Source: an uncultured Thermoleophilia bacterium
GTDB taxonomy: Bacteria; Actinomycetota; Thermoleophilia; UBA2241
Assembly (NCBI GenBank): GCA_963702475.1
Contig: CAVPCT010000005.1
Coordinates: forward strand, 928,001 to 992,000
Direction of reading: 5' to 3'
DNA length: 64,000 nucleotides
The position numbers were made by a program, and so were the translations under genes. Within the stretch, counting starts at the first letter, position 1. Every line of letters begins with the position of its first letter. The notes under the pieces are model-generated. The model saw only the letters and a program-made list of their open reading frames with translations. It was not told the DNA's origin and ran no database searches. Shown here one piece after another: positions 3,597-5,068 of this stretch.

Positions 3597-5068
3597 TCAC
3601 CCACCCGCATGCTTGGCGTCGGCTGCCGAGACGATCTCGGTGAGCTTCGCGGACACCTCCTCCGGAAGCGGCTCGACCTCAGTCTCGGCGAGGATGCGCC
3701 GCGCCTCGGCGCAGACCCGCGTGTACATGTCCGTGGAGCCCGCCATCGCCCACTCCTCCCGCGAGTGGCGGTCCATGAGGAGCGGGGCGCTCAGCTGTGG
3801 AGCAGTTCCTGAGCGTGCTGGCCGACGAGATGTACTCCGCCTCCGGTCCGAACGCGACGATCTCCTCGATCATCATCGTGTCGTCGTTGGTCGGAATACC
3901 CCCGACGATCTGGCGGATCATGGTGATGAACTCGTTGTCCGCGACGAGCACCCCCATGTCCACTCCGATCCCCGCCTCGATCAACCCGGGCCCATAGATG
4001 TAGCTGGCACCTGCCAGCGCCGGGATGAGCCCCGTGAGCGTGTGCTCGTGACCGCACTGGAGATCACCGAGTTTCGAGTCGCCCTACAAGCCCGCCGCCC
4101 AGGACGGGACCTTCAGGCGCCGCCCGAACTGCGCCGTCGCCGCCATGACGAGAGCCATCTCGGGGCCGCCGACCTGCGCAAGTCCCGTGCGCATGTCGAA
4201 GCCGCACGTCGACTGCCCGACGAGCGCGGGGCAGCCCGGCTCGCAAGCCTGGACGAGCACGAGACCGGCGAGCTCCTCGGCGATGCCGATCACCATCGTG
4301 CCGGCGATCGTCGAGGGCATCGTGGCACCGACCATGCCCATCGAGACGATGATCGTGGGGATGCGAGCGCGCGCCGAGGGGATCACGTAGTCGGTGCAAG
4401 ACTTGTTGAAATGCAGCGGCGCCACCGGCGAGCCCGCGATCAGGGTGTTGGGCTTCTCGGCGAGCTCGTCACGGCCGCCGGCGACGGCGGCAGCCAGCTC
4501 GATGACGGCGTCGGTCTCATGGCGCGACATGAGGGCAATGAGGACCGGCTTCGTCGAGTTGCGCAGTGCCGCCTCCATGCCGTGGATGCTGGCGGTCTCG
4601 ATGGGCACATCCCGCGGCGTGACGGCCATCGTGTTGGTGTCGTACTCGGGGAGGAACTCGGTAAGGTGGCAGATGTCGCCGGCGTCCTTCTTCGTCGTCG
4701 GCCGCAGCTCGCCACTCTCGAGGTCGTAGGTCATGACGCCCTCGAGGAAAGGCGTGAAGGACGGCCTGCCGGCCTCAAGGATGAGATCGTACTTCGAATC
4801 GCGGCCATAGACGCGGACGCGCTCGGGCGTGAGGCTGAGCGCGTGCTCAACGAGTCTCCGGCTGGATCCTCACGATGTGCGACTCGCGATCGACCTTGCA
4901 GCCTGCGTCGGCGTAGATGTCGATGGCTTCGTCTGCTTGCACCTTGATGCCCGTTCTCTCCAGGACCTCAAGGGCTCCGAGGTAGATGTCCTCGACCTCG
5001 TCGTCGGTGAGCGGGTTGAGACCCATTCCGGCGTTGCGATCTCGACCAGCGTGGGGTAGCCGCCTCAT
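3597..5068 (-). CDS. mttB: Trimethylamine methyltransferase family protein (MttB) with in-frame amber codon (putative pyrrolysine) at 4084-4086; frameshifts near 4858 and 3797
   Basis: Joined frames give about 490 aa: N-terminus MRRLPHAG...LNPLTDDEVEDIYLGALEVLERTG; core SPVAPLHF, MGMVGATMPSTIAGTMV, GGPEMAL; then [47 protein letters not shown]; C-terminus EARRILAETEVEPLPEEV. Confidence 0.9.

Follow-up and report, generated by a model that had tools for sequence, protein, structure and literature searches.

A probable pyrrolysine codon within a divergent mttB gene of a high-GC actinobacterium related to Thermoleophilia

Passages of Guo et al. 2022 (PMC9630628) report 81 bacterial genomes that encode PylRS, the synthetase of the pyrrolysine (Pyl) system, and count "two Actinobacteria" in this number, and a passage of a 2025 review repeats this finding on Actinobacteria (PMC11764691). 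The expression of Pyl-encoding mttB and mtbB genes by some Actinobacteriota metagenome-assembled genomes (MAGs) of Stordalen Mire is described in a passage of Ellenbogen et al. 2023 (PMC10805028). Since these cases have been reported, Pyl in the phylum Actinomycetota is already known, and the mttB gene analyzed here adds to it. This gene lies in a 64,000-nucleotide stretch (hereafter, the window) of contig CAVPCT010000005.1 from an uncultured Thermoleophilia bacterium (assembly GCA_963702475.1), and contains an in-frame TAG at the position of the catalytic Pyl residue of MttB. A sequence-only reading of this DNA had regarded an actinomycete case as unusual; this degree of novelty has to be lowered in view of the two reports, and also because PylS is already named by NCBI in "Thermoleophilia bacterium" MAGs. 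The texts found for pyrrolysine or mttB together with Thermoleophilia, Actinobacteriota, or Actinomycetota held, in their retrieved passages, nothing more specific than the three sources cited above. In the literature searched, the family-wide spread of the system, the number of Pyl genes, and the retention of release factor RF1 at 70% GC appear undescribed.

The window mttB gene, which encodes a trimethylamine:corrinoid methyltransferase of the Pyl type and belongs to a divergent subfamily, is located on the minus strand at 3597–5068, with an ATG start at 5068 and a stop codon at 3599–3597 (window coordinates). In the six-frame translation, it consists of an N-terminal piece, a 348-codon middle piece, and a C-terminal piece, each in a different frame. 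The middle piece reads ...KVPSWAAGL up to the TAG (minus strand, 4084–4086; CTA on the plus strand), after which it goes on in the same frame. The assignment to the family was based on PF06253 (MTTB; 185.1 bits against a cut-off of 25, profile positions 84–431), on TIGR02369, and on the best matches among all PDB chains searched with phmmer, which were the Methanosarcina barkeri MttB structures 7XCM and 7XCL/7XCN (E ~1e-56). When the middle piece was translated with the TAG as O (P0001), residue 257 fell, within a conserved block, exactly under the X (Pyl) of 7xcl_A (E 4.7e-56), as the sequence-only reading had anticipated. Its estimate of "about codon 328" also proved accurate: homologues with the same start are 327 amino acids long and their last residue is the leucine just before the TAG, which becomes codon 328 when the ATG at 5068 is taken as the first.

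The position of the TAG was then compared among all paralogues of the genome. PF06253 matched 75 times at about 60 loci; 14 of these matches contained one TAG and one contained two. A TAG occupied one and the same MAFFT column in all 15 TAG-bearing matches, the window copy included, and this column held V, L, A, T, or P in seven non-TAG paralogues added to the alignment. A comparable picture was obtained for the two other methylamine methyltransferase families. For mtbB (16 PF09505 matches), all nine aligned TAG-bearing matches, seven full-length and two in pieces, shared one TAG column. One of the five mtmB-family matches carried a TAG, at residue 197, equivalent to Pyl202, within a G-M-G-x-Pyl-G-P-E block aligned with the M. 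barkeri MtmB chain. The genome holds about 25 methylamine methyltransferase genes with a Pyl codon (15 mttB, 9–10 mtbB, and one mtmB), besides about 45 non-Pyl (non-TAG) paralogues of the MttB superfamily. These alignments identify the TAG of the window mttB as a predicted Pyl codon, and not a chance nonsense codon, and we hold with high confidence that this Pyl codon is genuine and that its actinobacterial host decodes Pyl.

Some further observations were made on these families. There are about 11 mtbB loci in the genome, all with a TAG where the site is present, and the four other mtmB homologues are without any TAG. In the two-TAG MttB-family match (G000:C5:364272-365009, plus strand), one TAG lies in the Pyl column and the other 87 alignment columns upstream; the surrounding region (C5:362180-368076) contains further fragmented copies of mttB and mtbB.

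Most of the homologues aligned from other data sets are interrupted at the same residue. Among 5.8 billion proteins searched, 17 matched at E<=1e-30, and the 10 non-self matches with at least 46% identity were aligned. Nine of them (46–82% identical, from other metagenomes) stop at ...AGL, and the tenth is a shortened copy from G153, a genome of the same family. The database homologues retrieved were all stored as a stub of 313–327 amino acids with a separate tail of 120–160 amino acids. One of the stubs, P0002 (313 amino acids, from a separate 1801-nt contig), was used to scan metagenomes; 94 stretches fitted a pattern, only one of which was a relative. This sequence (L161, a JGI metagenome contig, 81% identical) reads TTG TAG GGC at the site, followed by the same residues as in the window copy, including a GHEH motif, and the contig ends before the second of the two frameshifts described below. 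The window copy shares GHEH with L161, whereas M. barkeri MttB and the 14 other paralogues have GHEK. The change from HEK to HEH had been considered as a sign of decay, and this was dropped because the independent contig L161 has the same HEH.

The components required to make and insert Pyl were searched for in the whole genome against curated cut-offs, and all were found on one contig, C3, the window being on contig C5. PylB (438.1 bits against a cut-off of 348), PylC (323.8 against 248), PylD (209.1 against 150), PylSn (126.2 against 51), and PylSc (314.6 against 178) each exceeded their thresholds, and ARAGORN detected a tRNA-Pyl(cta), with anticodon CUA, at C3:641046-641118, 70 nt past pylD. 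In its cloverleaf, a 7-bp acceptor stem and one nucleotide precede a 4-bp D-stem with a 5-nt D-loop; the anticodon stem is long and the variable region measures only 2 nt, and these features are the unusual traits of tRNA-Pyl. At the pylT locus, Rfam gave no family at E<=0.01, and the tRNA call is that of ARAGORN together with the fold. The genes are arranged in the order nitroreductase, pylB, pylC, pylD, pylT, a GerM-like gene on the opposite strand, pylSn, and a corrinoid protein gene, and pylSc is located about 15 kb from this cluster, adjoining an mtbB gene. With pylT, pylS, and pylBCD all present, the use of Pyl by this organism is strongly supported; the sequence-only reading had proposed that the organism, or the donor of the operon, uses the 22nd amino acid and had named a search for the pyl genes among the ways to check it, and the outcome of that search agrees with its use by the organism itself. 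Of the three outcomes that this reading had listed as refuting (a sense codon in reads, a TAG outside the Pyl column, or a genome lacking pyl genes), none applies.

Two other elements of contig C3 may be mentioned here. A lone MttB C-terminal fragment (profile positions 440–493) was found at G000:C3:655693-655854 (plus strand), just upstream of the mtbB gene that adjoins pylSc. ARAGORN also detected a tRNA-Sec (tca) at G000:C3:167171-167268, and the organism may thus employ the 21st amino acid in addition to the 22nd.

As assembled, the frame of the window mttB is interrupted not only by the UAG. A tblastn comparison with four intact paralogues placed the three pieces in frames 1, 2, and 3, separated by two clean +1 shifts (one extra base each) with no residues lost: frameshift 1 at 4854–4859 and frameshift 2 at 3781–3797, both on the minus strand. 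The neighboring mttC gene shows one +1 shift near 3105–3120. In total, five frameshifts were found in the window, four of them of the +1 type. The two mttB indels that the sequence-only reading had listed as lesions are thus both present in the assembly, but their nature as lesions is doubtful. P0002 is 100% identical to the two frames of the window and passes the first site unshifted, as do P0003–P0011 and the G153 copy; at the second site, P0024 (98% identical over the overlap), P0019–P0023, and P0026 are unshifted. Since P0002 and P0024 are without the shifts, the mttB frameshifts are probably assembly errors, and we consider it likely, with roughly two chances in our favor for each one against, that these two shifts and that of mttC are consensus errors. 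Contigs built from run X2 ceased to align at 4855 and 3805, near the two frameshift sites.

Several points have to be set against the favored reading of a Pyl-dependent mttB in a Pyl-decoding host. The gene is broken as assembled, with three frameshifts in 2.2 kb of operon, and none was found in about 22 kb of single-copy genes (rpoB, rpoC, two dnaE-type genes, uvrA, the pyl genes, RF1, and RF2). Multiple lesions, internal TGA codons among them, also affect further paralogues of this genome, which indicates that it does contain true pseudogenes. In the 88 other family genomes, the one close copy is that of G153, with 84% amino acid identity, and it is cut before the TAG. No read-level confirmation was obtained from public sequencing runs, the best of which holds 0.19 of the sampled words, and among the contigs from the four best runs, none spans either frameshift site. 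The TIGR02369 scores of the 348-amino-acid middle piece (369.4 bits, positions 58–405) and of P0002 (317.5 bits, positions 2–312) are partial, the three mttB frames having been scored unjoined, and are not comparable with the cut-off of 525 bits, which is for the whole protein. Trimethylamine as the substrate is family-based, for a subfamily only 39–45% identical to the other Pyl-mttB paralogues. Finally, the evidence for the Pyl reading of the window gene is at the level of sequence.

One alternative is that the Pyl codon is genuine for the family, but that the mttB–mttC operon is a recently inactivated pseudogene whose frameshifts are true mutations and which makes no enzyme. The clustering of three frameshifts in about 2.2 kb, set beside none in the 22 kb of single-copy genes, would be expected from such an operon, as would the position of the frameshifts outside long homopolymers and the fact that the sole close homologue in the 88 family genomes is a 3'-truncated remnant. 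Moreover, about eight mttB-family loci and three mtbB loci of the genome are in pieces, some with an internal TGA. However, the window rate of five frameshifts per 64 kb predicts about 1.7 in 22 kb, so that observing none carries little weight (P about 0.18), and this comparison does not distinguish errors in accessory regions from pseudogenes. P0002 is fully identical over its 313 amino acids and lacks frameshift 1, the frameshift 2 region is intact in close relatives, and three indels accompanied by zero amino acid change are unlike neutral decay. The same +1 lesion also occurs in an unrelated glycyl-radical enzyme gene of the window, and a sulfatase gene is split too, which fits assembly error. 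A recently inactivated operon is thus an alternative that we regard as real but clearly the less probable one.

Close orthologues were sought at the DNA level in 54 same-genus genomes and at the protein level in 89 genomes of the family (E<=1e-115), with up to 23 candidates per genome scored in the protein search. An intact close orthologue was not found in those 54 and 89 genomes, and copies may have been missed. The G153 copy (L146, G153:C2:96043-99926) breaks off after ...CGFDMRTG, some 30 codons short of the Pyl codon, and is followed by unrelated genes, without mttC; upstream of it lies a low-GC, apparently non-coding stretch.

We also analyzed whether TAG still serves as a stop codon in this genome. 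RF1 was found with 477 bits against a cut-off of 423, together with a second release-factor homologue. Among 2381 high-GC3 open reading frames (ORFs), chosen by codon-position GC, 1965 end in TGA, 343 (14%) in TAG, and 73 in TAA. A coding-like continuation in the same frame was observed after 22% of the TAG, 13% of the TGA, and 25% of the TAA stops, and the excess of TAG over TGA corresponds to about 30 ORFs, close to the count of methyltransferase genes. Back-up stops are absent, since the next stop in frame lies at a median distance of 61 codons for TAG and 58 for TGA. A reassignment of TAG to pyrrolysine throughout the genome, where it would never act as a stop, might have been suspected from the complete pyl system and the many TAG-containing genes, and such a UAG-to-Pyl code is reported from archaea (Kivenson et al. 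2025, as cited in a passage of PMC13695967). With RF1 kept above its cut-off, TAG closing 343 of the 2381 ORFs, a TAG-over-TGA excess roughly the size of the methyltransferase set, continuations even more frequent after TAA than after TAG, and similar distances to the next stop after TAG and TGA, this genome-wide code is very improbable here. Because RF1 is present and TAG ends these ORFs, Pyl insertion is read as site-specific and in competition with termination, as in other Pyl bacteria, with no genome-wide reassignment.

The host genome comprises 4.31 Mb in nine contigs, with a GC content of 69.5–70.9%, an estimated completeness of 93.8%, and an estimated contamination of 6.49%. The top six RpoB matches are MAGs of Solirubrobacterales, Solirubrobacteraceae, or Gaiellales (66–71% identity), Solirubrobacterales and Gaiellales being orders of the class Thermoleophilia of the Actinomycetota, and RpoB is about 59% identical to that of Streptomyces and other Actinomycetes. 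Close homologues of PylSc and of the MttB tail bear the NCBI name "Thermoleophilia bacterium". Judging from one marker, RpoB, the host is a member of the phylum Actinomycetota near the class Thermoleophilia; the expression "probably actinomycete" of the sequence-only reading therefore holds for the phylum, and the host lies outside the class Actinomycetes.

The spread of the trait was estimated from PylSc in several draws of genomes, which are samples and in which kin genomes are not independent. In a first draw, limited to the genus, 23 of 24 genomes had a PylSc above its cut-off. In a draw from the class, at E<=1e-20, it was detected in 73 of the 79 genomes of one family (f1), in 9 of 61 of another (f4), and in none of 260 from ten other families; 44 of the 48 same-genus genomes of this draw had it. 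In a draw from the phylum, it was found in 1 of 31 genomes inside the class and in 0 of 369 outside it. Given the high frequency of PylSc in family f1 (73 of 79) and its absence from most other families sampled, Pyl appears to be a lineage trait common to nearly the whole family-level lineage, and no stray acquisition; the distribution alone also suggests vertical inheritance of the system. The proposal that only the donor of the operon might have used Pyl is superfluous given this frequency in the family. Two genomes of the same genus (G041 and G042; 1.7–1.8 Mb, 1–2 contigs, 98% complete) are without PylSc and contain 5–6 MttB-like candidates, compared with 15–89 in the other same-genus genomes; they may represent a streamlined sub-lineage that lost Pyl.

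These data also bear on the possibility that contigs C3 and C5 come from different organisms binned together, in which case the host of the window mttB might lack the Pyl machinery. The assembly consists of several contigs and its contamination estimate is not zero, but the GC content is uniform among the nine contigs, mttB, mtbB, or mtmB genes with a TAG are present on seven of the nine, C3 and C5 among them, and PylSc is nearly constant in the genus, so that a mixed bin of this kind is even less probable than a genome-wide code. Least probable of all, to the point of being negligible, is that the TAG arose by an ordinary nonsense mutation or a sequencing error and matches the Pyl column by coincidence: errors or lesions do exist elsewhere in the gene, but all 15 TAG-bearing paralogues share the column, nine of ten aligned homologues stop at that residue, the TAG is directly visible in L161, and contigs of three other runs (X2, X3, and X4) cover 4084–4086 with no change there among 40 of the 72 difference rows. 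The sequence-only reading had likewise judged a chance nonsense change unlikely.

Taken together with the genuine Pyl codon that we favor, a mechanism can be proposed in which this 70%-GC Actinomycetota genome near Thermoleophilia encodes a Pyl-dependent MttB and its corrinoid partner MttC. A dedicated tRNA-Pyl(CUA) would insert pyrrolysine at the UAG of codon 328 after being charged by a split PylRS of the bacterial type (PylSn and PylSc), and pyrrolysine itself would be made by PylB, PylC, and PylD, all encoded within this genome on a contig other than that of the window. Decoding would be a local suppression in competition with the retained RF1. By analogy with characterized MttB and MttC, the Pyl residue would bind and activate trimethylamine, and the methyl group would pass to the Co(I) of MttC, from which a bacterial C1 carrier would bring it into C1 metabolism. 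Pyl incorporation and trimethylamine activity of the window MttB are both predicted on this basis, trimethylamine being the substrate expected from knowledge of the family. The window copy is the most divergent Pyl-mttB of the genome, since its identity to the other 14 (39–45%) compares with 43–87% among those 14, and because of this divergence its substrate may differ.

The surroundings of mttB are compatible with its assignment to this family. A gene for a cognate, mttC-like corrinoid protein directly adjoins it (2930–3587, minus strand), with B12-binding_2 and B12-binding domains and a TIGR02370 match. This gene is split by its +1 shift: B12-binding_2 and the first half of B12-binding are in one frame, and TIGR02370 positions 3–145 and 143–195 are in one frame and the next, respectively. 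Downstream and co-directional are a gene weakly assigned to an NCS1 or cytosine-purine-type permease, a possible substrate transporter (1020–2516, minus strand; PF02133 with 29 bits, TIGR00800 with 50 bits, below its cut-off), and, last in the run, a short-chain dehydrogenase gene (197–967, minus strand; PF13561 with 226 bits). A TetR-family regulator with a BetI-type C-terminal domain is encoded divergently (5524–6066, plus strand; PF00440, PF17940, and PF13977).

Elsewhere in the window, a glycyl-radical enzyme of the PFL2-3 subfamily is encoded at 53915–56400, with a radical-SAM activase at 52858–54060 and an EamA transporter at 51809–52939, all on the minus strand. The glycyl-radical enzyme was considered as a choline trimethylamine-lyase, and this was ruled out by a TIGR04394 score of 597 bits against a cut-off of 1050. 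Its N-terminal part, of about 110 residues, is in another frame, with a +1 shift near 55,900–55,960. In the sulfatase gene (49729–51290, minus strand), Pfam Sulfatase positions 1–138 and 141–300 are in different frames, with a −1 shift. At 30404–33847 (minus strand), an ORF for an SBF-family transporter ends in a TAG (32942–32944) and is followed, in the same frame and with no gap, by an ORF for a SulP sulfate permease. This TAG was examined as a second Pyl site and dropped: since each half forms a complete and separate transporter domain set (SBF and SulP), it was read as the boundary of two adjacent genes. An ORF of 294 amino acids at 13111–13992 (minus strand) matched only MMPL positions 146–305 and probably represents part of a longer transporter gene.

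Standard gene callers stop at TAG, as illustrated by the stub and tail records, and the methylamine capacity of this lineage is consequently under-annotated in a systematic way, or its genes are flagged as pseudogenes. If these bacteria do demethylate tri-, di-, and monomethylamine, they would divert substrates from methylotrophic methanogenesis. A lineage with 70% GC that keeps RF1, uses TAG for 14% of its stops, and reads about 25 TAGs as Pyl would also offer a natural case for studying how UAG ambiguity is managed in bacteria. More than 2000 environmental PylSc homologues were found, and the best 120 are all at least 70% identical. A broader and more speculative proposal, to which we give about the same modest credence as to the inactivated operon, is that a Thermoleophilia-like family abundant in soils and sediments inherited Pyl vertically and expanded to about 25 Pyl methyltransferases per genome besides about 45 non-Pyl MttB homologues, and might thus constitute a major overlooked bacterial methylamine sink competing with methylotrophic methanogens, in which divergent Pyl-mttB subfamilies, such as the GHEH-type one at 39–45% identity, may have acquired new methylamine specificities beyond trimethylamine.

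Compared with the characterized enzyme, M. barkeri MttB, the window protein belongs to the same PF06253 superfamily, its middle 337 residues align with the archaeal protein, and both share the flanking pattern PS-aromatic-x-AG-x-Pyl-x-D-x-K ... Q-x-GHE around the Pyl position, which ends in GHEK in M. barkeri and in GHEH in the window subfamily. In the window, mttB is followed by a corrinoid protein gene, but the host is a 70%-GC bacterium, and beyond this corrinoid protein the methyl acceptor presumably cannot be coenzyme M. Non-Pyl members of the MttB superfamily, for instance the glycine betaine methyltransferase MtgB (PDB 2QNE and 9YCE), have the same fold family as the window protein, but they match it more weakly (E ~1e-38, 24–28% identity) and have an ordinary residue in the Pyl column.

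Among organisms with Pyl, the delta-proteobacterial symbiont of Olavius algarvensis resembles the window host in that a passage on it (PMC1976440) describes a large Pyl proteome, with an unusually large set of Pyl-containing methyltransferases, and a tRNA-Sec is likewise present in the window host; the two differ in phylum and habitat. The Stordalen Mire MAGs (PMC10805028) are of the same phylum and carry the same gene types, and were recognized there by truncation at the amber codon; the passage on them amounts to a few sentences, whereas the pyl genes, the tRNA-Pyl, the numbers of paralogues, and the distribution in the lineage are covered here. As in the split PylSn and PylSc systems described in passages of Guo et al. 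2022 (PMC9630628), two distinct genes encode PylSn and PylSc, and pylB, pylC, pylD, and pylT form a cluster; in comparison with those systems, the order here is pylB-pylC-pylD-pylT-(GerM-like gene on the opposite strand)-pylSn, with pylSc about 15 kb away beside mtbB. With respect to the "two Actinobacteria" of that study, the lineage described here is far more populated, PylSc being present in 73 of the 79 sampled genomes of the family.

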